Origin: an uncultured Gemmatimonadales bacterium
GTDB taxonomy: Bacteria; Gemmatimonadota; Gemmatimonadetes; Longimicrobiales; RSA9
DNA: 64,000 bases
NCBI GenBank assembly: GCA_963798085.1
Contig: CAWCRS010000012.1
Coordinates: 1-64,000, forward strand
Reading direction: 5' to 3'
Shown here: piece by piece, positions 1 through 12,142 of the stretch
How positions within the stretch are numbered: position 1 is the stretch's first letter
Layout: each line of letters begins with the position of its first letter
The notes under the pieces: generated by a model
Database searches by the model: none
What the model was told of the DNA's origin: nothing
Seen by the model: the letters and a program-made list of their open reading frames with translations, nothing else
Program-made: the position numbers and the translations under genes

Positions 1-153
1 GCAAGCGATCACGCTTTGGAGCAGTACGCCACACGTCTGGAACGCGACCGCAGTGCAAACCGGCTTCGCTACAGCCCAGCCCTTGGCCTGACGACGAGCA
101 CGCTGCGGACGAGGCCCTATCGGGCGAACACCAACTTTGGCTCGGACGGGTAG
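1..153 (+). CDS. 3' end of probable CBASS CD-NTase (partial)
   Basis: Frame 1 is open from base 1 and ends ...RPYRANTNFGSDG*. The tail resembles the NTFFG-type C-terminus of E2-associated CD-NTases; it overlaps the E2 gene and precedes a patatin. Confidence 0.6.
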   Translation, partial: ASDHALEQYATRLERDRSANRLRYSPALGLTTSTLRTRPYRANTNFGSDG

Positions 154-577
154 CCGCTACGTTGCGGCCCGTGAACTCAGCGTGCACGAACAGGTCGCGG
201 GGATCAAGCTCGCGTGGCCCAACTTCGTTCACGAGGCTGGAGACGGCCGTTTGGTCAGCCGTGGGAAGCTGCGGCCCACTCCAGCTATCCGGGAGTACGC
301 GGTCCGCATCGAGTATGCGCCTAGAGAGTACCCGCGAGTGTTTGTGGTAGACCCTGCGCTTTCGCCACGCGAGCCAAACGGCAAGATACCGCACGTGTAT
401 CCGGGACGACGGCCCTGCATCTTCTACCCGAAAGTACGTGAGTGGACGAGCGGAATGCGAATCTCTGAGACGATCGTTCCTTGGCTAATGCGTTGGTTAT
501 TTCACTACGAGATTTGGTCGGTCGCTGGCGTGTGGTACGGTGGCGGGATAGAGCATCGAGGCAACAATGACGAGTGA
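137..577 (+). CDS. CBASS E2-like (ubiquitin-conjugating-like, E2-only Cap2 type) protein
   Basis: 146 aa with PHVY..RPCIFYP (candidate catalytic Cys) and IVPWLMRWLFHYEIW..G.W.GGG.EH; lies between CD-NTase tail and patatin. Confidence 0.75.
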   Translation: MARTGSRYVAARELSVHEQVAGIKLAWPNFVHEAGDGRLVSRGKLRPTPAIREYAVRIEYAPREYPRVFVVDPALSPREPNGKIPHVYPGRRPCIFYPKVREWTSGMRISETIVPWLMRWLFHYEIWSVAGVWYGGGIEHRGNNDE

Positions 578-1618
578 GAGCTCAGTCCCTTTTCGCATCC
601 TCAGTCTCAATGGTGGCGGAAATAAGGGCACGTACACTGCGGCGGTTCTTGCCGGGATCGAGGAAATCACCAGGAAACGTATTGTTGACCACTTCGACCT
701 TATCGTCGGGACTTCGACGGGCGGCATCGTCGCGTTGGCTCTCGGGATAGGTTTGCCAGCAGGTGATATCCTTCGCTTTTACGAAGAGAAGGGCCCATCG
801 ATATTCCCGTTGGTCGGTGTTCAGGGCCGGCTTTGGGCGATGCTTCGGCATATGTTCAGGTCGAAGCATTCAATTGAGCCTCTTCGTTCGGCACTCGCAA
901 ACGTGCTTGGTGATCACGTCGTGGGCGATTCGCTTACCAGGCTGGTGCTCGTCTCATACGACGGGTCGAGCGGCGACGTTTACATGATCAAGACCGCGCA
1001 TCATCCGCGTTTCAAGAATGACTACTCAATGCGAGCCATCGACGCGGCGTTAGCGACTTCCGCCGCCCCGACTTTCTTGCCGGCGTTTGTTCGACGAATG
1101 GTACCAAGCTGGTTGACGGTGGCGTGTGGGCAAATTGCCCGGCAGCGGTCGCGGTGACCGAGGCAATGACGGTCTTGGGACAGCGGTCCGGCGAATTTGA
1201 CTTGTTAAGTGTCGGCACGACAGAGAGTCCGTTGCATGTGTCAAGACGCAAGCTTGCTGGCGGTATCCTTCAATGGGCACTGTTCGGACCGGACCTGCTC
1301 CTACAGGCCCAGGCTAAGGGAGCGCTCGCGCAAGCGAAGCTTCTTACGGGCGCGGCAGATCGAATGCTTCGACTCAACGAGGTCGTTGAGCCGAAGCGGT
1401 TTTCGCTCGACAATCCATCAAGCATCCAGGACTTAAAGGCGCTGGGGATGAAGGCAGCGCGACACTACGGGAGGATTGTGGCGGAGCGCTTCCTTGCGGC
1501 GCCTGTCTCAGAGTTTGTGCCATATCATGGTCCGCGCTCTGAGGCCGCGGTCTCCAACGCTGCAATGGATCACCGGCAAGCACCGACACGGCAGATTGAC
1601 CGCGGCGCGCCTTCGTAG
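567..1618 (+). CDS. capV: Patatin-like phospholipase, CapV-type CBASS effector (one frameshift near 1090)
   Basis: GGGNKG and GTSTG motifs in ORF 567-1157; the shifted frame gives KLVDGGVWANCP and runs to 1618. One extra T in TTTGTTCG would join them. Confidence 0.8.
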
Positions 1619-1747
1619 CGAGATTCACAGAGACGAATGTCGAATACAATGCCGCTCCTGCAGCGCCCCTGTCCTGATTTCTCTACAAGCCTGTCCTCAA
1701 TACTCACTGCGACTCCGCAGCCCTTTTCCGCCAGAGCACCCTGTTTC

Positions 1748-1892
1748 AGCTAACGTCTCTGCTGTTCACGACGTGCCGGAGCCGACCGCAAGGGCGGCGC
1801 AGGCATGTCCGCGCCCTTCACAGGGCGACTCGCGTCGGCCACTGCGCGGCCGGCGGCCGACAGGCCGCCGTGCGTGAAATACCGTGTTAGGT
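1748..1892 (-). repeat. attC-like recombination site 1 (145 bp)
   Basis: AGCTAAC-9nt-GTTCACGACG...CGTGCGTGAA-7nt-GTTAGGT; one extra G in the right arm. Confidence 0.85.
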
Positions 1893-1943
1893 GACGTTGG
1901 ACCCACCCTTCTGAAGCGCGCCCTCTGGGCTGCGTTGCGAGAC

Positions 1944-2737
1944 CTACGGGTCCGGGAATTCACGACGCCATTCATCACCAGGGCGCTCGTGGCCGCGTGC
2001 AAGTTCTCGCAATAGGTCTTAAGGTGCTTCCACTTCGCCTGCGGAACCGCTGAGAGGTTATGCGCAAGCGCAAGCGACGAGCGCATGGCAGTCCGAGCGT
2101 TTTCGTATCGAAACGCGGAGAAGCGCCATTCCGTCGCTCTGCCAAGAACCGCGTTGTGGACGAGTAGCCGCGAATCTGCAGGCGGGTGCACCGCCCAATC
2201 GCGAAAGCGGAAAATCTCTCGGATTCCCTCTCGGAGTCCACGGTAATCCTGGCGGTTCGCCAAGGTGAATGCCAGGCGAAATACTTCGCTCGTTTGCTTC
2301 CATCTTGCCGTCTGGTTCTTGGCCCAAGCGGCTTGGTGCAGCGCAGGCACATCAATGCGTTCCTTGACATGTGAATACAGGGCGTCAATGGAGATGGCGG
2401 CAGCTGTTACTGCCTGCATTGATGCGTGGAATTCAGCCTCGAGGAGAGGATATGCTTCTTTCGCCTGCCCTGTGGCTGCCACCTCGAGCGCCAGCCGAGC
2501 ACGTCTTGCCGCCGCGACATGCCCGGTGCCGATTCTTAGCCAGTGCCGGACCAAGTCCATTCTCAGAGCGAAGCCATCATGCTCGACCCTGAAGGCGCCG
2601 TCTGCTGGCACGATGATTCGAAACCCTTGAATGGACAGATCTGCTCCGTCTGGAACTATGATGCCAGCGGCGTTGGCTCTCGCGCTGGGAGCCGGCTTGG
2701 CGGCCTGCGGCGGTTCGTCGGAAATGCTCATTGGCAT
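1944..2737 (-). CDS. Cassette A hypothetical protein (probable frameshift near 1975)
   Basis: The computed ORF 1766-2821 runs through site 1. A one-base shift gives ...LVDEWRREFPDP* ending at 1944, inside the cassette. Start may be 2821 or 2737. Confidence 0.55.
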
Positions 2738-2941
2738 CGATCTCTTGGGTGCTTCGACTTTCGAGGCTAATGGACTACGTACTGCTCGCGGCGATCGATG
2801 GATATGGCCCAACGTTCGCATACAGTTCCCGGGGAACGATTCCCACTTGCCTTGAGGCGGCTACCTCCCCCGGCCGATCATCTGTGCTGACGAAGCCTCC
2901 TTCGTTGTTACTTGGCATGCACGCGCTGTGGGTCCAATGTC

Positions 2942-3084
2942 ACCTAACGTGAGTAAGTTCACGAACCCGCGGGAGCCGGGCGAAGCACGGCGCAGCGGGT
3001 TCCCGGCCTTTCACAGTCTACCCCTTTCACAGCCCGCCGGGCCAGACGCGCGAAGCGCGGCGCCGCGTGAACTGATTGTTATCT
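2942..3084 (-). repeat. attC-like recombination site 2 (143 bp, most divergent)
   Basis: ACCTAAC-8nt-GTTCACG...GCGTGAA-6nt-GTTATCT. Confidence 0.8.
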
Positions 3085-3102
3085 GCCGTAGGTCCGTACG
3101 CC

Positions 3103-5535
3103 CTACGGACGCAGCAGAGTTGCCGAGAAACCGCCGCACAGACACGTAATGGACGCGTCTCGTCCACCCTGCTTCAGGACTCGGTAGAGACCTCGGCATT
3201 GCGGACACCTCAGCGCGTCGAAAAGGTCCCGCATCGCTTCTATCACCGGCCGAAGGTCATTCGGTGTAAGGTCCAGCCATCGATTGTAGTGGACGGCGGG
3301 ATTCACTGCCCACTGTTCGGCCTGAGTCCGGTCATAGATCTGACCTACGACGCCCTCACGTTCCCCCAGCGCAATGGCGTCGGCGGCGTTGTTCCACCGC
3401 TCTGCCGCCTGGCGAGCTTCCTTGAGGAGCTTACGAAACCTAGCCACCGCAGCTGGCATCACAGCTCCGAGATCCCATCTCGCATCCGCTCTGTACGGTA
3501 CCAACGCCTCCAATGCCTCGCAAACACTTGAGAAGTACTCCTCGGAGCCCCGGCGCAGCTTAGCTGCAGCGCCGGCAACATCCCGTTCGGCTAGTGCTGC
3601 CTCGATCTGCTCCCACTGATCTGGGTCCTGTTGTACGTGCGGCCCAGCTTCGATACTCCAATCGAAGAACTCAATCTGCGTTCTTGTAGCTCCACTTGCT
3701 TTGAGCTGATAGGCCCACGTCCGATCGTGCGTTGTGATTAGGAACTGCTTGTCCGGAAACTCGTGGGCAAGAAGGTCCGCTACGTTACGTCGGTGATCAG
3801 CGTCCACGGACATTACTACGTCATCGAGGATGATTAGCTGGAATGCGTCCCGTCCAAGCCACTCGGCCAGGGCGAGGAATAGACACAACCCCATACTGTC
3901 TTGGTGGCCCTCGCTGTGGAGGGCGTGCGGGGGGTGCTGACCATGACCCATGAACTCCACCGTCATGCCCAAGCCAGCCGCCCCAGGCCGGAGTTCGGCG
4001 GTGAAACCGGTTTCATTCTCGCCGTGAATTCGCTGATATAGCGCCACGAATCTGGCGCATACATTATCATACAGGGCACCAAGCACTTCCGTTCGTTGCG
4101 CTTGGTATGCCTCCAAGGTCGCGTGTGCGCGCCGAGCGGCCCTTCGTGCGCCGTCTAACCGGCGGCGGACCTCAAGACGCGCACCAAGTGCCTCTCCAGT
4201 TGCCGTAAGCAGGTCCCAAGCATCCTGGGCTGGGTTTCTCAGGGGTGTCCGAGCTTCCGCGCGGCTCACGAGTTCGTCAATGTTGCCGAGGTCGTCCACT
4301 GCGTCCAATAACTCAGAGATACTGACGCCCACGACGGCGTACTGCTCGAGTGGCACTGTCAGGGCCTCGATCAACTGCGCAATTCGGGTGATGGCTCGAG
4401 GCGCAACTCCTGACTGCGCAGCATCGAGGACGGTCGCAGCTTCATTCAGCTGCTCTGCCGATGCTTCAGCACGTGCCAGCTGCGATCTAGCCCGACCTGC
4501 GAGATCGTCAATTGTACGAAGGGCCGCCTGCACCTCCGACGTCTGTTGTGCCCGTTCGGCAAGGGCTGCGCGCAGCTGACCCGGTGCCCAGGCCGCACCA
4601 CAGAGCGGGCACTCACCAGTCTCCGGAATGAAGGATATTCCGAGGTGAATAAGTCTCGCCGAATCGACGACGCGTGCATAACCCGGGACACTCCGAACGG
4701 AAGCGATCGCTTGCTGGAGCTGGCTGTCCAGCTCGCGAAGTTCGTTCCTTCCCTCAGCGTTCGTAGAATGGGACAAACCTGCGGCAGCGGCGCGCACGGA
4801 ATCGGTGCTTGGACCCAACGCACGCGTGCCTTCCGGCCTTATTATGTCCCGCCGAAGATCGCCCTCGGCAGCAGCGAGTGCTTCACCACCTAGCATCGCG
4901 CGGGCCCGGTTAACAGCCTCAAGCATCTCCGTCTCGTCGACACGGGCCACGCCGGCCGCAGCCGCAACGCGTGCCTCCTGCCGCTCGAGCTCCGCGGTGA
5001 TCACTGCCGCGGAGCGCTCGAGATCTCCCTTTGCACGCACGAGTCGTTGGCGAACGGCCTCGATTCCGGTGAGGTCAAGGACTGCCTGGACGGCATCGGC
5101 TCTGTCGCGCGGTTCCGCCGTGATAAACCTCAGGAGCTCCCTCCTGGTCAGGACGTGCTGGCCGTGCTCGGCGTGCGGCAGAGCTGCTAGGAGTGCCGCT
5201 CGCGCGTTGTCCTCGCACACTAATACGGTGGGACTTGCCACGCAGCGACTGATCTCGATCGGATGCGCCACCCCAGGGATTGTCACATGCGCTCGCACAA
5301 TGGCATGTTCGGGATCCGATCGAATGTGAGGCCCATGTCTATTTAGGCTCAATCCGCCACTTCCACGGCCCGTAAGCCGACCGATCTTCCCGGTGAGCAG
5401 AAAATCGACCGCATCTACAATCGTGCTCTTGCCTGAACCATTTGGACCGAGGATGACCAAGTTCTGGCCATTTGCGACCACCTTCAGACTGCGAATGCCA
5501 CGAAAATGCGCGATTTCAAGCGTTTCGATTTTCAT
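3103..5535 (-). CDS. SMC/Rad50-like ABC ATPase (cassette B)
   Basis: Walker A GPNGSGKS, coiled coil with central CPLC hook, signature LHSEGH, Walker B IILDD, H-loop THD, C-terminal CPQC...CLC. Confidence 0.85.
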   Translation of the reverse strand: MKIETLEIAHFRGIRSLKVVANGQNLVILGPNGSGKSTIVDAVDFLLTGKIGRLTGRGSGGLSLNRHGPHIRSDPEHAIVRAHVTIPGVAHPIEISRCVASPTVLVCEDNARAALLAALPHAEHGQHVLTRRELLRFITAEPRDRADAVQAVLDLTGIEAVRQRLVRAKGDLERSAAVITAELERQEARVAAAAGVARVDETEMLEAVNRARAMLGGEALAAAEGDLRRDIIRPEGTRALGPSTDSVRAAAAGLSHSTNAEGRNELRELDSQLQQAIASVRSVPGYARVVDSARLIHLGISFIPETGECPLCGAAWAPGQLRAALAERAQQTSEVQAALRTIDDLAGRARSQLARAEASAEQLNEAATVLDAAQSGVAPRAITRIAQLIEALTVPLEQYAVVGVSISELLDAVDDLGNIDELVSRAEARTPLRNPAQDAWDLLTATGEALGARLEVRRRLDGARRAARRAHATLEAYQAQRTEVLGALYDNVCARFVALYQRIHGENETGFTAELRPGAAGLGMTVEFMGHGQHPPHALHSEGHQDSMGLCLFLALAEWLGRDAFQLIILDDVVMSVDADHRRNVADLLAHEFPDKQFLITTHDRTWAYQLKASGATRTQIEFFDWSIEAGPHVQQDPDQWEQIEAALAERDVAGAAAKLRRGSEEYFSSVCEALEALVPYRADARWDLGAVMPAAVARFRKLLKEARQAAERWNNAADAIALGEREGVVGQIYDRTQAEQWAVNPAVHYNRWLDLTPNDLRPVIEAMRDLFDALRCPQCRGLYRVLKQGGRDASITCLCGGFSATLLRP

Positions 5536-5722
5536 CTATCCCCTCAACAAACAGGGCGGTGAGCGCCTCGAGCTGCCTGGCTGTGCCTGCCGGCAGAATG
5601 TCCTGCAGGCGTCCGAGTTCCTCTTCGGTAAAGAGGTCGGTCCGACGCACACTCTCGATTGTCTTGGCTATGATGATCGCGGCTAGGTCGTTCGGCCGAG
5701 GCTCTGCCTCACGCTGTGTCAT
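5516..5722 (-). CDS. Small hypothetical protein coupled to the ATPase (cassette B)
   Basis: 68 aa, AAGGAGG RBS upstream of the ATG, overlaps the ATPase start by 20 nt. Confidence 0.65.
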   Translation of the reverse strand: MTQREAEPRPNDLAAIIIAKTIESVRRTDLFTEEELGRLQDILPAGTARQLEALTALFVEGIDENRNA

Positions 5723-5760
5723 GACCCTCCTTGCCGGACTGCCCGGTTAGGACCTATGGC

Positions 5761-5906
5761 AGATAACGTACAAGCGGTTCACGACGTGCCGGAGCCGACC
5801 GTCAGGGCGGCGCAGGCATGTCCCGGCCTTGCAGGCGCGTGTCACTTCGGATTGCCCGCCGGGCCGGCAGCCGGCAGGCTGCCGTGCGTGAAATGACGTG
5901 TTAGAA
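5761..5906 (-). repeat. attC-like recombination site 3 (146 bp)
   Basis: AGATAAC-9nt-GTTCACGACG...CGTGCGTGAA-7nt-GTTAGAA; left part nearly identical to site 1. Confidence 0.85.
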
Positions 5907-5997
5907 GACGTGATCCACCGCTGCCTGACCGGCCCTCGCGCCCAATCTCGGGCGACCCGTTACTATTAATTCAGGCCCAGTCGCTCAGAGGATGCCG

Positions 5998-6676
5998 TCA
6001 GGATCGGACACCCATCGGCAATCTTGGGTCGACCGACGGGCCACGCTGGACCAGGACTGCCTGCAGACCGGCACGCCTCGCTCCCTCCAAGTCATCCAGG
6101 ACCGTATCCCCAACATGCAGCGTCCGATTGGCAGTCACCTCCAGCCGCCTGCACGCCTCTTCGAAGATCGCCGGGTTCCGGTTTGGCGCTTCCAACTTCA
6201 GCCAATAGCAGATGACCGCATCCAGCATACCCCCAATGCCGAGTTCCGTACAGGAAGTGCGACAGCCCACACTGCCAGTTGGAGACGACGGCTGTGGCAA
6301 TGCCAGCCGCGCGTAGCGCCCTAAGAACCCGGGGCACTTCCGGGTACGGGGCGTGCACCAGGCTGCTCGGCCCGAGCACGTGCCAAATGGCAAGGGCGGA
6401 GTGGCCGCGTCCGCATTCGCGCCTTGGCACGTTCAAGCGCCGAAACAGGCCGCTCGACCAAGCGAACCAGGTGCTCCGATCTCGGCTCGGGCGCGAGATC
6501 GGGCGAGTACTCCCGGCCGTGGGGCTCGAAGACATCATAGAGTACCTGGTGCTCCCAGGGGTCCGACGCCAGGCCTTGCGCTCCAGGTACTGCATCAGGA
6601 TGGCGCCCCTGCCGCGACCGGTCCGGTGGTCTGCAAGCGTCTTGTAGAAGTCCAGGCAAACCGCGTCAACCCGCAT
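5998..6676 (-). CDS. HAD-superfamily hydrolase (cassette C; several frameshifts)
   Basis: CLDFYKTL, VVSNW, SAKP and HVGD...DLEGARRAGL motifs are spread over three frames. Confidence 0.75.
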
Positions 6677-6783
6677 GACTTGACCTCGCGCCGATAGCCT
6701 TCGTGTGACCGCTTGGCTCGGCTACCACGGATCCCACATCTGAACAGGGCCTGCACGCTTCAGATCGGGGGGTGGATCATGTC

Positions 6784-6923
6784 TGCTAACGTGATGGCGG
6801 TTCATGACGCGCCGGAGCCGCGGGCGGCGCAGGCGTGTCCACGCCCCTCCCAAGCTATTCGCCTCGGCCATTGCGCGGCCAGCCGCGCGAACGCGCGGCG
6901 CCGCATGAACTAGCGTGTTAGCT
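6784..6923 (-). repeat. attC-like recombination site 4 (140 bp)
   Basis: TGCTAAC-9nt-GTTCATG...GCATGAA-7nt-GTTAGCT. Confidence 0.85.
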
Positions 6924-7168
6924 GTTGGGCGCGCCCTTCCAAGCGCGCTGCCGCGGCACGAGCTCTGATCAGCCTTTCCCAAGACACCGTTGCCGCTCAA
7001 TGACAACGCCGCGCCAGCGGGCGGAGCTGACCGGTATCGCGGCTGCCCCGTTCCAAAACGCCGCGCCAGCGGGCGCCGCTTGCCGACAGCGGGAGGACCG
7101 CCTCGGCCACGCAGACCGCCAACCCAAATTCCGTTTCAAGATCCGTTGCAACGCCTTTTTCAGCTAAC
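6917..7168 (-). other. ORF-less cassette D
   Basis: About 250 bp between sites 4 and 5; near-duplicate of 7300-7530; no ORF shared by the two copies. Confidence 0.7.
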
Positions 7169-7306
7169 GTGATGGGGGTTCATGACGTGCCGGAGCCGAC
7201 CGCCAGGGCGGCGCAGGCATGTCCACGCCCTTCCCGAGCGACCGCCTCGGCCATTGCGCGGCCAGCCGCGCGAACGCGCGGCGCCGCATGAACTAGCGTG
7301 TTAGCT
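7162..7306 (-). repeat. attC-like recombination site 5 (145 bp)
   Basis: AGCTAAC-9nt-GTTCATG...GCATGAA-7nt-GTTAGCT; close to site 4. Confidence 0.85.
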
Positions 7307-7530
7307 GTTGGGCGCGCCCTTCCAAGCGCGCTACCGCGGCACGAGCTCTATCACCTTTCCAGACACCGTTGCCGCTCAATGACCGCCGCGCCAGCGGCGG
7401 CTGACCTGCATCGCGCTGCCCCGTTCCAAACGCCGCGCCAGCGGCGCCGCTTGCCGACAGCGAGGCCGCCTCGGCCACGCGACCGCCAACCCAAATTCCG
7501 TTCAGATCCGTTGCGCGCCTTTCAGCTAAC
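7300..7530 (-). other. ORF-less cassette E (integrase-proximal)
   Basis: About 230 bp paralogue of cassette D; its ends pair at 15/18. Confidence 0.7.
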
Positions 7531-7560
7531 GTTGAATGGGTGTGGCGGGGCATGTTAATG
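7524..7560 (-). other. Candidate attI-like primary insertion site
   Basis: Last cassette junction AGCTAACGT with no inner GTTCAYG box or long palindrome; about 350 bp from the integrase stop. Confidence 0.5.
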
Positions 7561-7881
7561 CCGAGTTGCCGGGTTTGTGGATAGGCGCGTTAGTGGAACT
7601 GAATTTGATGGGTGACGGAGCGCGCTGCAAGGGACGGCGGTGGATGGCGGGAGGGTTGACGGGTTGGATGGTGATGGGGCAGCCGTCCAAGGTGCTGGGG
7701 CAATGGTGGATACCGACTGACGCACGGGTTGGGGAGGTCAGTTCAGGTGCATCGGGCGGGATCTGAATGCGTGGAAGAAACCGCGGGTGGCGGCGCTTTC
7801 TCTGAGCGGTGGCGCGCGGCACTGACGTGAACCTGGTCGTGATAATGGAGCTGTTAGGGCGAGGTGCGAAAAGAGTCGTGG

Positions 7882-10347
7882 CTAGGGGTGCGAGCGATTG
7901 GGAGGTCTGGGTGGAGGTGGGGGTGAAAGAGACGGCGGGGGTGGTGGGGGCAGGGCGGGAGGGTCGGGGGTGTCGAGGGGGCTGCGGATGTTGCCGAGGT
8001 CGCGGCGGCTCACATGGGTGTAGATCTGGGTGGTCTTGGGGCTGGCGTGGCCGAGGAGTTCCTGGATGTATCGGAGGTCGGTACCGGCTTCGAGGAGGTG
8101 TGTGGCGAAGCTGTGGCGGAGTGTGTGGGCGGTTGCATGGGTGCCAATGCCGGCCTGTGTGCGGGCGTTCTCGACGACTTTCTGGGCGGAGCGGACTGCG
8201 AGGTGGCGAGTGGGCGGGGTGCCGGGGAAGAGCCAGCTGACAGGCGACCATGTGCGCATGTACTCGCGGATCGCGTCGAGTGCGCGGTCGGAGAGGAGGG
8301 TGTAGCGGTCCTTGCGACCCTTGGCGGCGCGGACGCGGATGAGTCCGCGGGCGGGGTCAATGTCTTCGACTCTCAGGCGTACGACCTCGCCGACGCGCAG
8401 TCCTGCGGAATAGAGGAGCATGAGAAGGGCGCGGTGCTTGGGGTTCAAGGACACGCGCACAATGCGCGCGGCATCGGCGCGACCGAGCACGGCGGGCAGG
8501 TTGCGGTCGGGGCGCGGACGGGGGATGCCGTTCAGGAAGTGGGCACTGTCCAGGACGTGGGTGAAGAAGAAGCGGAGTGCGCTAACTGCCTGTGAGTGGT
8601 AGGACGTGGAGACGTTGTCCCGTTCGACGCGCTCGAGGAAGTACGCGCGCACGTGATCCGCGTTGAGGGCAGGCGCTTCGGCGCGGGCGTGCCGCAGGAA
8701 GGCGCGTGTGTGGTGGAGGTAGGCACGGCGGGTGCGGAAGCTGTGTCGCCTGAGCGTCATCTCCTCACCGAGGCGGGCCAGCAGCTCGGATTCGCCGGGT
8801 GCTGGCGGCAGCGTTGCAATGGAGCGGCGTTTTGCGGGGCTGGCGCGGGACGACACGGCGGCGCGGTCAGCGGTGAGTGGCGATGTTGGAGCGGGGCGTA
8901 CTTGCGGCGTCTGTGGCGTGTCGCCCTGGCGTGCGATCTCGATAATGCGGCGCACGGCGAGTCTCGCGGCAGGCGTGTCGGCCAGGATCCAGCAACGTTC
9001 CGGGTTGCTCCACACGCGGTCCGGCAGCATGCGGAGAACTGCGCGGGCGCGAGGGGTGTCATCGCAGGCGAGGGCAATGCGTCCGTCGGGTCGGAGCCAG
9101 ACGCGCGGCTCGCCGGCTGCCGGAGCCAGCCGGGCTGTCGCGGCGGAGGCGCGATGCTGCGCCGCGGTCTGTTTCGCTGATGAAGCGACCTGTGCAGCAG
9201 TGGCGCGATCGACAGGCGGACGTGCGGATGAGACGCCGGGTTCGGTGCGCGACGCGCGCGGCGCGGGTCTGGCGGGCACGGATTTGTGGTCATTGCGATC
9301 GTGGTCATTGCGATCGTGGTCATTGCGATCGTGGTCATTGCGAGCGTGGTCATTGCGCGCGCGGTCGTGGTGTGCGGGAGTCGATGGCGCGTCGGGTCGG
9401 GGTCGCGAGGATGTCGCAGGCGAAGCGGGTGGCAGCGTCGCAGTCAGCCGTTCGCGTTGAACCGGATCGGGCGATGCGGTTCGAGGCGGGACGGGTGGCG
9501 GAGGCGGTGTCGTCGCCTGATATCCGTGCCGTGGCAGGGATTGCCGTTGCGGTGGCAAGGGGCGTGTGGTTGGCGGTTCTGCCGCCGGTGTGCGGCCGGC
9601 CGCCGGTGCGCGTGCGGCGCGGGCTGGAGTGGCGGGTGGAGGCACGGGACCGGCTTCGGGGCGTTGGAGCGACGCGGCCGGCGTGGCTTCTAACGCTGTG
9701 CTTGTATCGGGCGCGAGCGCGCGACGCGGCACGGCATCGTGCTGTGCGGGTGCGCGGGTCGAGGCGAGGGGCGGGATCGCCTGTACAGTTGCATCGGTCG
9801 GCAATGGTCGATGCTGGCGGGCCAGCCGGTCGGCCGGGTCCGGCGGAGGCGGTGTGGCCGCCTGGTGTCCGGCATGGGACGGTTGAGGCGGTTGCGGAGG
9901 CGACCGCCGGGTGTGCGGCGTCTGCGGTGGCACTTTGCGAGCCGCTCCCGCTGTGTGGGTGGCTGCAAGCGAAGCGGTCGACGTCGCTGGCAAGGCCAGT
10001 GGTGGGGCCGCGGCGTCGGGGCCTGGCAGTGCTGTGGCGGGCGCGGGTTCTAACGCGGTGCTTGGGTCCGTCGTTCGTGTGACCGGCGGCGTCGCATCCG
10101 GCTCCATGTGTACGCGCACCGTGCAGTGTGGAACGAACGGCGGTTGCGACGCATCGGGCAGCAGCGGTCGGCGGCGCCAGGATGTGCGGTGCGGCGGATC
10201 GGGCTGCGGTGCGGCTGCGGGCGCAGCGGGCTGCGCGGGGCCGGGGATTGTCGCCGCGGGTGGCGCAGCAGGCGACTTCGTGCCGTCGGTTTCGGCTTGT
10301 GCCGGTGGCGAGCCGGTCCGGGCAGCAGCTGGGCGAGTGTCAGGCAT
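7882..10347 (-). CDS. Tyrosine recombinase with SAM-like N-domain and extra N-terminal domain (start uncertain; conserved part about 7950-9110)
   Basis: AGLR, KGRKDR, HTLRHSFATHLLE, IQELLGH, TQIY and SPLD motifs. ATG 10347 follows GGGGACAGG; the region above about 9110 is low complexity. Confidence 0.9.
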   Translation of the reverse strand: MPDTRPAAARTGSPPAQAETDGTKSPAAPPAATIPGPAQPAAPAAAPQPDPPHRTSWRRRPLLPDASQPPFVPHCTVRVHMEPDATPPVTRTTDPSTALEPAPATALPGPDAAAPPLALPATSTASLAATHTAGAARKVPPQTPHTRRSPPQPPQPSHAGHQAATPPPPDPADRLARQHRPLPTDATVQAIPPLASTRAPAQHDAVPRRALAPDTSTALEATPAASLQRPEAGPVPPPATPARAARAPAAGRTPAAEPPTTRPLPPQRQSLPRHGYQATTPPPPPVPPRTASPDPVQRERLTATLPPASPATSSRPRPDAPSTPAHHDRARNDHARNDHDRNDHDRNDHDRNDHKSVPARPAPRASRTEPGVSSARPPVDRATAAQVASSAKQTAAQHRASAATARLAPAAGEPRVWLRPDGRIALACDDTPRARAVLRMLPDRVWSNPERCWILADTPAARLAVRRIIEIARQGDTPQTPQVRPAPTSPLTADRAAVSSRASPAKRRSIATLPPAPGESELLARLGEEMTLRRHSFRTRRAYLHHTRAFLRHARAEAPALNADHVRAYFLERVERDNVSTSYHSQAVSALRFFFTHVLDSAHFLNGIPRPRPDRNLPAVLGRADAARIVRVSLNPKHRALLMLLYSAGLRVGEVVRLRVEDIDPARGLIRVRAAKGRKDRYTLLSDRALDAIREYMRTWSPVSWLFPGTPPTRHLAVRSAQKVVENARTQAGIGTHATAHTLRHSFATHLLEAGTDLRYIQELLGHASPKTTQIYTHVSRRDLGNIRSPLDTPDPPALPPPPPPSLSPPPPPRPPNRSHP
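9286..9360. repeat. 15-bp tandem repeat x5 (GTGGTCATTGCGATC)
   Basis: Read directly; encodes NDHDR repeats in the integrase frame. Confidence 0.9.
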
Positions 10348-10701
10348 CCTGTCCCCGTGTGTGCAGTGCGGCCAGGAGTTTGTGCGATACGAGGGGGCAG
10401 AGCCATGGCTGGGCGGGTCGCGAACGAGTGCGCGCTGCGAGTGTCGGCGCCATGGTGTCGCGGTCGGGATGTCGATCGCTGGTCTGCCACGGGGCGGGCG
10501 TCGGCAAGACCGGCGTCCAGCGGAATTCGAGACGAAATCGCACATCACCCGGCGAATCGCCTCGCCGGCGCGGCATTGAAGGTGCGCATGATCCATCAGT
10601 GGCGCGGGCACGACAGCCGCGGCGGGCCGACTCCTTCGGTGCACATCGGTGCGCGTTGCCGAGGCCCGCGGCTGTGTCCCGGGACATGCGTGGAGACGGG
10701 T

Positions 10702-10869
10702 CGACGCGCCACTGAACGACGCCAACTGAACGACGCGCCAACTGAACGACGCGCCAACTGAACGACGCGCCACTGAACGACGCGCCACTTGAATGACGCG
10801 ACACTGAACGACGCGCCACTGAACGACGCGCCACTGAACGACGCGCCACTGAATGACGCGCCACTGAAC
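10702..10869. repeat. 15-bp tandem repeat x~11 (CCACTGAACGACGCG)
   Basis: Read directly; small indels between units. Confidence 0.9.
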
Positions 10870-11189
10870 AATATGCATGGCGTGATCGGTGCGGGCCTCG
10901 AGGCGGACGGGACGGCTCCAGGTCGCAGAATCGAGACCGTCGCCTTCAATGTGTAATGGACTGTTATGGCGGCCGCCATCACCTCGTCGCCCATGGAGCC
11001 GGTGAACCGCCGCCTGTACGCCCGGCGTGTAACCCGCTGGCAGTCAGTGTCGTGCCCGATCGTGCGGAGCAGTGCTGGCAGGCTTCTGCGTCGAGTTGAT
11101 TGACGCGGATACCACGGGCGAGAAGCGGTCCGTGGCCTCCGTCCGGCGTGTGAAACAGTGCAACCCGGGAACCGGGGTGCATCCGGGCA

Positions 11190-11290
11190 TCAAATGGCGA
11201 ACCACGCCAGACCGTCCGGCGTGAAGCCGCCGTCGAGAAGACGAGCGACGTTGGGGTGCTCGAGCGTCGCGAGGATGCGGCGCGGTGGAA
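11190..11290 (-). pseudogene. Ser/Thr protein kinase remnant
   Basis: RRILATLEHPNVARLLDGGFTPDGLAWF matches Hanks kinase subdomains III-V; the rest of the domain is absent. Confidence 0.55.
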
Positions 11291-11893
11291 GCTCCTGTCG
11301 CAACGCGAACGAGATCCGCCGATCGCACTCCCTGACAGCGTCCGGGGACCATACGGTGCACACCAGACCATATGTTGCAACCATCGGCCGGCAAGCCGGA
11401 AATCGTGGGACATCGTACGTGGCGGTACGCGCGACGGTTGAATGGAAGGAAACCGGGGTTGAACGAGGAGGTGTGGGAGGATTCACGTGGGGACGAGTGG
11501 GCTGTATCTCGACGCCACTTGTGCATTCGGCCGCAGCGGCAGACCGCCCGGCGCGTTGCACCTCCTCGAAACGGCGCTGCTAATCCTTTGTCGGCTCGCC
11601 TTGCCGGATCGGCTGCGGCCGCGGCCTCGGTGCGAGTTGTCCGGTTACAGTCACGGCGAACCGGCTGGTGCCCGCGGGTGTCGCCGTCTGTTCACGCGGG
11701 ACATTACCCGCTCTGCCCCTGTGAGCCCTGCTCATTCTGCGCCTCCCACATCAGCTGCCTCTCGCTGCCGCTCTCCCCATAATCAATCCGTACATCGGCC
11801 TGCCCTGTGACCGGGACGGTGATCAGCCTTGTTCCCAGTCGATCTCGCACTCTTCGACGCCCGTCCATTCGAGGAAGCGATCCACCGGACTTA

Positions 11894-12142
11894 CGCCGCA
11901 GAGGCGCCTGAAGAGATTGCGGTCGCGGCTAACGTCACGATCTACGCCGCAGAGTCGCCTGAAGAGATTGCGGTCGCGGCTAACGTCACGATCTACGCCG
12001 CAGAGTCGCCTGAAGAGATTGCGGTCGCGGCTGACGTCGCGGATCAAGGCCGCAGAGGCGCCTGAAGCGATTGCGTCGCGGCTGACGTCGCGGATCAAGG
12101 CCGCAGAGGCGCCTGAAGACATTGCGTCGCGGCTGACGTCGC
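11894..12142. repeat. ~51-bp tandem repeat x~5
   Basis: GCCGCAGAG(G/T)CGCCTGAAG...GTCGCGGCT(A/G)ACGTC units. Confidence 0.85.

Follow-up and report, generated by a model that had tools for sequence, protein, structure and literature searches.

Cassette ends paired over 17-23 bp with a constant position-11 mispair in attC-like arrays beside an IntI-related recombinase lacking the IntI insertion

The DNA analysed here is a stretch of 64,000 nt (the window) from an uncultured Gemmatimonadales bacterium (Gemmatimonadota; Longimicrobiales; RSA9), located at the start of contig C12 (CAWCRS010000012.1, positions 1 to 64,000) of a 6.23 Mb genome assembled in 12 contigs with 67% G+C (GCA_963798085.1). 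It carries an array of five cassettes bounded by attC-like sites, next to a gene for a tyrosine recombinase related to the integron integrase IntI. Our data indicate that the two ends of most of these cassettes, and of related cassettes elsewhere in the genome, are complementary to each other over a helix far longer than that of canonical integron cassettes, and that this helix is interrupted by one constant mispair at position 11. We consider it fairly probable that the repeats at a cassette's two ends together form the outer part of the R-arm helix in an attC-type site folded from single-stranded DNA, and that the system is integron-like.

Positions 1746-7530 contain five palindromic repeats of about 140 nt each, with xxTAAC and GTTAxx at their + strand bounds. 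They constitute a single family of attC-like sites (family 1), all given on the + strand: J0 (1746-1892), the last of the window array, supported by nhmmer and covariance-model matches and by alignment, and J1 (2940-3084), J2 (5759-5906), J3 (6782-6923) and J4 (7160-7306), supported by profile matches and alignment. The sites are also delimited with slightly wider bounds, at 1744-1896, 2938-3088, 5757-5910, 6780-6927 and 7158-7310, respectively. The inserts A to E measure 1063, 2690, 891, 252 and 231 nt, respectively. The earlier note on this DNA, made from the letters alone, had described terminal inverted repeats on four of the cassettes, and all four arm pairs are present as it described them. 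Specifically, the left arm of cassette A (1886-1906, + strand), 3'-terminal when the cassette is read along its coding (minus) strand, pairs in 20 of 21 positions (95%) with the right arm (2928-2948), the 5' start on the minus strand. The arms of cassette B (3078-3095 and 5750-5767) pair at 17/18 (94%), those of cassette C (5900-5919 and 6771-6790) at 18/20 (90%) and those of cassette E (7300-7530, minus strand; arms 7300-7317 and 7513-7530) at 15/18 (83%). In cassette D (6917-7168, minus strand; about 250 nt, no gene) pairing runs over 8 bp, as the note also had it, and a 2-nt indel is then needed before a further 4 bp. With the G of GTTA numbered as position 1, position 11 is a G in the left arm and a T in the right arm on the + strand of all five cassettes.

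The first cassette of the array is E, a paralogue of D. At its outer end the alignment of the sites shows that the attC core is absent: only a lone R half-site, GCTAAC (7525-7530, + strand), is found, joined to unique sequence, and we take 7525-7881 (minus strand) as a putative attI-type region. From the recombinase stop codon (gene end at 7882) to this start of the array there are 352 nt, and the recombinase gene and the cassettes share the minus-strand orientation. Within the unique region between cassette E and the recombinase gene lies a 14-nt palindrome, GGCATGTTAATGCC (7549-7562), centred on GTTA/TAAC, which may be part of the insertion site. In addition, a soil-metagenome contig matching 7265-7532 carries the right end of cassette E joined to a site core and not to the unique attI-side sequence of the window; the switch point lies within GCTAACGT, and such contigs can be chimeric at repeats.

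The pairing was then followed across the genome with an nhmmer profile built from the five window repeats. This search recovered 63 site copies (44 on C2, nine on C3, five on C12 and five on C1), nearly all with the TAAC and GTTA anchors, and several clusters run up to contig ends. An extension was scored when at least 6 bp paired perfectly from position 12 onwards; displacements of at most 2 nt were tolerated and were used in 4 pairs. By this measure 45 of the 59 pairs of consecutive sites, that is, the two ends of one cassette, carry the extension, with a median run of about 9, against 1 of the 62 pairs of arms flanking the same in-array site and 31 of 3785 pairs of arms from different cassettes; among the latter, runs of 7 bp or more come largely from paralogous cassettes. 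Of the 59 own pairs, 54 have G facing T at position 11 (+ strand) and 21 have T facing T at position 10. In well-paired cassettes the whole helix spans 17-23 bp, with one exception among 42. Each of the four Watson-Crick pair types is represented at every outer-stem position from 12 to 20 in the 37 modelled sites; T-G occupies position 11 in 37/37 of these sites, which were picked for a good stem. The claims that the repeats differ between cassettes yet covary, and that position 11 is always G opposite T, are therefore borne out, the latter without exception in the window and in the large majority of cassettes genome-wide.

The 14 pairs without extension include cassette D of the window, three spans of more than 4 kb, in each of which a site was probably missed, and weakly matching, degenerate far-end sites (C2 380-392 kb and C3 688-696 kb). 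Partner arms were searched for the orphan ends on C1, where the cluster ends in an unpaired arm, and to the left of J0, and none was found. The 42 stems fall into 24 loose classes, so that stems are not strictly private to one cassette; two C2 cassettes (403638-404687 and 425309-426324), for instance, have near-identical outer stems with a matched A/G change at position 20, and unrelated interiors. A count of compensated changes, 24 versus 7, was dropped as evidence of selection: it is circular, because the cassettes had been picked for paired stems and their interiors proved unrelated. A suspected motif flanking the stems (CCGTTG / CTGGTTG) did not hold up either.

Repeats of 18-23 bp ending units of 0.2-2.7 kb resemble in form the ends of miniature inverted-repeat transposable elements (MITEs) or insertion sequences (IS), and pairing at the RNA level, as in terminators or mRNA end-pairing, could also be imagined. 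Both origins are highly improbable in our judgement. Each repeat begins exactly at the GTTA/TAAC boxes of the conserved 140-nt palindromic site, and the units follow one another head to tail, each with a single site. When the whole genome was scanned for end pairs of this kind, 35 of 36 matches fell inside array contigs, protein-family scans found no transposase among the cassette proteins, and duplicated units, described below, break inside CTAAC. As for RNA, arms 0.2-2.7 kb apart are too far from each other for terminators, the arms flanking one in-array site do not pair (the single case in 62 given above) and Rfam returned no family match within positions 1-12000 of the window.

The position of the junction was read from a duplication. 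Cassette A together with J0 (C12:1744-2950) recurs at C2:442844-444050 with 99.5% identity over 1208 nt, and divergence of the two copies from their neighbours sets in within CTAAC at one end and within TAACGT at the opposite end. From these breakpoints it follows that the unit is, in + coordinates, a site core plus an insert, and that the junction lies within 5'-CTAA|C-3', matching the crossover place of IntI (PMC7439510). The R box, the crossover in AAC/GTT and the bottom-strand hairpin of canonical attC sites are defined in PMC2727003 and PMC7439510. As in integron cassettes, the site is placed downstream of the minus-strand open reading frame (ORF). The L box covaries between sites (GTTCACG/CGTGAAC, GTTCATG/CATGAAC, GTTGCCG/CGGCAAC, GTTAACG/CGTTAAC). 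Given this polarity of the unit and the half-site on the recombinase side, the minus strand corresponds to the top strand of the site and the + strand to the bottom one.

In order to set a baseline, the same measurements were made on canonical integrons. The earlier note had assumed an R-box complementarity of about 7 bp in canonical cassettes; this figure is slightly too low, since PMC2727003 reports self-pairing that extends to 9-11 nt. The genome studied here has a true IntI (C1:447485-448429, 409.9 bits) with an array of its own (C1:447485-463065), co-oriented and consisting of 15 sites of a different family of about 108 nt; several cassettes are duplicated within it. Over its 14 end pairs, uninterrupted complementarity spans 4-12 bp (9-12 in 11/14), and the run from position 12 is at most 1 bp in 14/14. 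IntI is above its cut-off in 165 of 401 genomes of the phylum (a tally that includes the unpublished G097, G182 and G157, none of whose sequence was used), and these genes, too, are ordered recombinase then array on one strand. Of 20 regions taken beside true IntI genes, 15 gave arrays; these provided 157 consecutive pairs, or 149 once duplicates are removed. Complementarity there is mostly 9-13 bp, with a peak at 9-11 and a maximum of 15, and the extension as scored above occurs in 1/149 pairs. Among the 72 pairs with perfect positions 1-10, A/G at position 11 occurs in none and the run from position 12 is zero in 44. These counts agree with the 9-11 nt given in PMC2727003, and the comparison rests on same-phylum arrays together with that source; a Pseudoalteromonas integron and three class 1 integrons were left out of the count, a simple site finder having recovered only 0-4 sites per locus, with gaps. 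On this evidence canonical integrons are without the long-stem feature, as the earlier note had proposed.

The recombinase next to the window array (7882-9030, minus strand, 382 aa) differs from canonical IntI in having no IntI-specific insertion, the additional domain near patch III, a point that the earlier note did not raise. Its score with the integron integrase model TIGR02249 is 215.2 bits, short of the cut-off of 265, and comes from two separate stretches; Pfam detects only PF13495 and PF00589, and no HARP-type N-terminal domain. Its best solved relative is VchIntIA (2a3v), and residues 178-241 of IntI4 have only about 20 counterparts in it. The insertion was measured over the alignment columns that hold residues 166-255 of the genome's own canonical IntI (G000 C1). 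The short recombinase has 49 residues there and all 42 sampled relatives have 48-53, compared with 90-91 in 30 canonical IntI proteins and 55-57 in two Xer-like proteins of this genome. The protein also stays under the cut-offs of the Xer families (NF040815, 197.7/220; TIGR02224, 172.7/335; TIGR02225, 164.7/330), and in a quick tree it groups with IntI, away from the two Xer-like proteins. Homologues are abundant, 7639 proteins at E <=1e-30 among 8000 scored, and appear in their sources as XerD, tyrosine recombinase or 'recombinase/integron integrase'; the closest ones are from Gemmatimonadota. Upstream of the called start, an open frame of about 600 codons (9031-10878, minus strand) is of low complexity and rich in repeats (runs of RNDHD and VVQWR), and is probably non-coding.

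The position-11 mispair was also looked for beside these homologues, in 160 loci, 80 from genomes and 80 from metagenomes. Here A/G at position 11 means an A at the cassette start against a G in the reverse complement of the cassette end, which gives A-C when the top strand folds and G-T when the bottom strand does. Regions downstream of the recombinase gave 60 distinct end pairs with perfect positions 1-10, and 40 of them, from 28 loci, show A/G at position 11, with the reverse in only 3. Pairing resumes at position 12 in 40/40. The runs from position 12 were of 1 bp in 7 pairs, 2 bp in 6, 3 bp in 5, 4 bp in 13, 6 bp in 3 and 7, 8 and 9 bp in 2 each, the very long stem being strongest in the genome studied here, in its nearest relative L052, in L192 and L083 and in some cassettes of L082. 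The first signature cassette begins about 60-400 nt after the recombinase gene in at least 14 loci. Among 26 end pairs from upstream regions the reverse pattern (G/A) was found in 15 (at L084, L120, L122 and other loci) and A/G in none; therefore, arrays also occur in divergent gene order. Insertion-less recombinases accompanied by this design come from Gemmatimonadota, Spirochaetota, Bacteroidota and a Bacillota metagenome-assembled genome. Given the 40/60 here against 0/72 in canonical pairs, and the placement beside this clade, the position-11 mispair is, as far as sequence comparison goes, a conserved mark of the arrays adjacent to insertion-less recombinases, in line with the earlier note, which had made its conservation in other arrays a point to check. 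With a covariance model of the site family itself, 150 further genomes of the phylum gave no match, a weak null because only 20 candidates per genome were scored. Many homologue contigs (L052-L131, L182-L261) end a few hundred bases past the recombinase gene, as would fit repeat arrays breaking assemblies.

The idea that an excised circle could form an outer stem which array sites cannot was examined by folding, with DNA parameters, the reconstructed circle sites and the in-array sites (n=59) on both strands. The circle sites are predicted to be the more stable, with a mean free energy on the + strand of -54.9 kcal/mol versus -44.9 for in-array sites, and on the minus strand of -51.7 versus -43.3. 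Predicted folding favours the + strand, with its G-T wobble, over the minus strand, with its A-C mismatch at position 11, by 3.2 kcal/mol in circles and 1.6 kcal/mol in arrays. In the minimum-free-energy structures of the + strand, the outer stem is formed in 42/59 circle sites and 2/59 array sites, and the R box in 41/59 and 15/59, respectively. The consensus fold of 37 circle sites with good stems begins on the outside with the outer stem and the T-G of position 11 (37/37); position 10 stays unpaired before the R box, directly inside which comes a G-T (37/37), and a 5-bp L box then leads into three hairpins. This favoured fold is without the classical bulges; a bulged G on the 3' arm fits one pairing register by eye (GTTCACG-ACG / CGT-G-CGTGAA).

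What the outer stem would contribute depends on the context of the fold. With 11-nt arms the mean R-box probability is 0.77, compared to 0.42 for in-array sites, and 25-nt arms leave it at 0.76. When 150-nt flanks were included (41 cassettes), the probability of the R box was 0.92 with a cassette's own arms (41/41 above 0.5), 0.71 with its own positions 1-11 and foreign sequence beyond (30/41), and 0.25 in the in-array arrangement (10/41). These values speak against a plain role of the outer stem in folding: with short flanks it adds nothing to the predicted R box, which it is predicted to aid only in a longer single-strand context.

Taken together, these data show that recombination joins cassettes within the conserved CTAA|C; an in-array site is then a chimera, its inner core and one arm being the cassette's own and its other arm the neighbour's. 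It is only with the cassette's own ends side by side that positions 1-10, the G-T at position 11 and a further 7-12 bp pair. The mechanism that we propose goes further. The adjacent insertion-less recombinase would be the enzyme using these sites, with the invariant wobble at the outer edge of its presumed binding arm of about 11 bp, where it could set the strand with G-T apart from the strand with A-C. The added stem length may let the site of a free circle fold reliably in long single-stranded DNA, and the chimeric array sites would fold poorly, with the result that insertion of circles would be favoured over excision from the array. Control of direction by the stem and choice of strand by the wobble, both already proposed in the earlier note, are accordingly stated here as proposals. 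A search for a circle junction in one soil-metagenome sequencing run (0.06 share; short contigs over the site copies) found none.

Several points weigh against this reading. Some concern the enzyme: in the assembly the short recombinase is physically linked to only 5 of the 63 family-1 sites, the other clusters reaching contig ends or, on C1, stopping without a partner arm, and the canonical IntI of the same genome, a full protein at 409.9 bits, is a possible acting enzyme. It might service the family-1 cassettes, with the short recombinase being Xer-like and having another job and the stems a quirk of the lineage. Such an arrangement appears quite unlikely to us. That IntI has its own co-oriented array of another site family, free of the feature, and about 12.5 kb of ordinary-looking genes without detected sites separates it from the family-1 cluster on C1. 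The window array begins 352 nt after the short recombinase gene, the same closeness is seen in the other lineages, and among five genomes with such arrays IntI exceeded its cut-off in one and stayed under it in four (genome completeness not established).

Other points concern the folding and the stem. All folding values are predictions on isolated DNA, the 25-nt arms bring no gain over 11-nt arms, and the + strand of the window would be the recombined (bottom) strand provided that the enzyme acts like IntI. Stems past position 11 are only 1-4 bp long in 31/40 pairs of other lineages; therefore, the long stem is not essential to the system. Furthermore, where two cassettes have similar stems, their interiors are without detectable similarity in 11/11 cases (blastn, tblastx), and part of the pattern may reflect the inheritance of ends and not selection acting on the individual stems. 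Along this line, the stems could be an inherited by-product of the site module or of cassette formation, e.g. by fold-back copying, with no role in recombination. Besides the unrelated interiors, this explanation is in keeping with the 24 loose classes into which the 42 stems fall, the missing R-box gain with short flanks and the 1-12 bp by which the stem past position 11 varies between lineages. We regard it as rather unlikely all the same. Position 11 is fixed in identity and place across phyla (40/60, against 0/72 in canonical pairs), perfect pairing is kept in most cassettes in spite of wholly different stem sequences, and position 12 pairs in 40/40, a constancy which points to constraint and not to drift.

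With regard to cargo, all cassette ORFs lie on the minus strand. Cassette A encodes a protein of 351 aa with no family match (1766-2821), and cassette B a small ORF of 68 aa (5516-5722) and an SMC/RecF-type AAA ATPase of 810 aa (3103-5535; PF02463, 57 bits, and AAA_23), which also gives weak PtuA/MAD3-type matches. The haloacid dehalogenase (HAD)-type hydrolase gene of cassette C is broken into two overlapping minus-strand frames (6092-6676 and 5998-6393). Cassettes D and E belong to a paralogous gene-less family of about 230-250 nt (6917-7168, 7300-7530 and C2:426449-426677) that carries an internal 29-nt direct repeat (7005-7033 / 7057-7085). Just past J0, on the strand opposite to the cassettes, lies a gene for a patatin phospholipase of the type found in cyclic-oligonucleotide-based anti-phage signalling systems (CBASS), at 567-1618 on the + strand; it is split into overlapping frames (567-1157 and 1124-1618), which score 185.3 and 31.5 bits against NF041079.

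In comparison with known systems, the sites described here share with canonical attC, whose boxes read RYYYAAC...GTTRRRY, the palindromes bounded by xxTAAC/GTTAxx, the covarying L box, the presence of one site per cassette, the crossover inside CTAA|C and an R box whose distal part belongs to the next cassette, by virtue of which the full R helix re-forms only in a circle. They differ in self-pairing of 17-23 bp, as opposed to the 9-11 nt reported in PMC2727003, in the invariant G-T (bottom strand) or A-C (top strand) at position 11, in an inner part predicted to fold into three hairpins and in a recombinase without the IntI insertion. As in the sedentary chromosomal integrons of the Vibrio type (PMC4889954), there is a large chromosomal set of 63 sites belonging to one highly similar family. 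The AAA ATPase in the array and the adjoining CBASS-type lipase gene likewise recall the anti-phage-type cargo of Vibrio-type superintegrons, whereas here the recombinase is co-oriented with the array and has no insertion, and the site architecture is different. The XerCD recombinases acting on attP of the CTX phage, Xer-type enzymes without the IntI insertion, use a folded single-stranded hairpin, in which mispairs make one strand the substrate. Their way of working is similar, but in place of a cassette array the phage has one site, which integrates at dif. A full-text literature search, supplements excluded, returned no report of cassette-end pairing over 17-23 bp, of a fixed position-11 mispair or of arrays belonging to insertion-less IntI relatives; archaeal integron integrases, for their part, retain the IntI-specific domain (10.1101/2022.02.06.479319).

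A broader reading, which we advance only tentatively as a reasonable possibility, is that these arrays represent a second, widespread class of integrons run by insertion-less relatives of IntI, with a long R-arm helix and strand-marking by the position-11 wobble, near the ancestral state. The wobble would do the strand-marking job of the extrahelical bases and the IntI insertion, and the short IntI relatives would either never have had the insertion or have lost it. In a quick maximum-likelihood tree rooted on the two Xer-like proteins, the canonical IntI sequences group together (support 100) and branch from within the short forms, from which it follows that the design could be near the ancestral integron state; the nesting is tentative, as the careful search is unfinished and the canonical IntI sample comes from one phylum.

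In conclusion, the prevailing view makes recombination in integrons dependent on the IntI-specific domain, which reads the extrahelical bases of a short folded site, and standard searches discard recombinases without this domain. The arrays described here follow the same cassette logic with a recognisably different site, in which the helix is about twice as long and carries one fixed wobble, and in current annotation they would be filed as orphan attC clusters. The position-11 signature offers a simple sequence test for finding them, and the wobble itself offers a concrete point for mutation in studies of strand and direction choice by enzymes that have no IntI insertion, a matter that bears on the origin of integrons from Xer-like enzymes.

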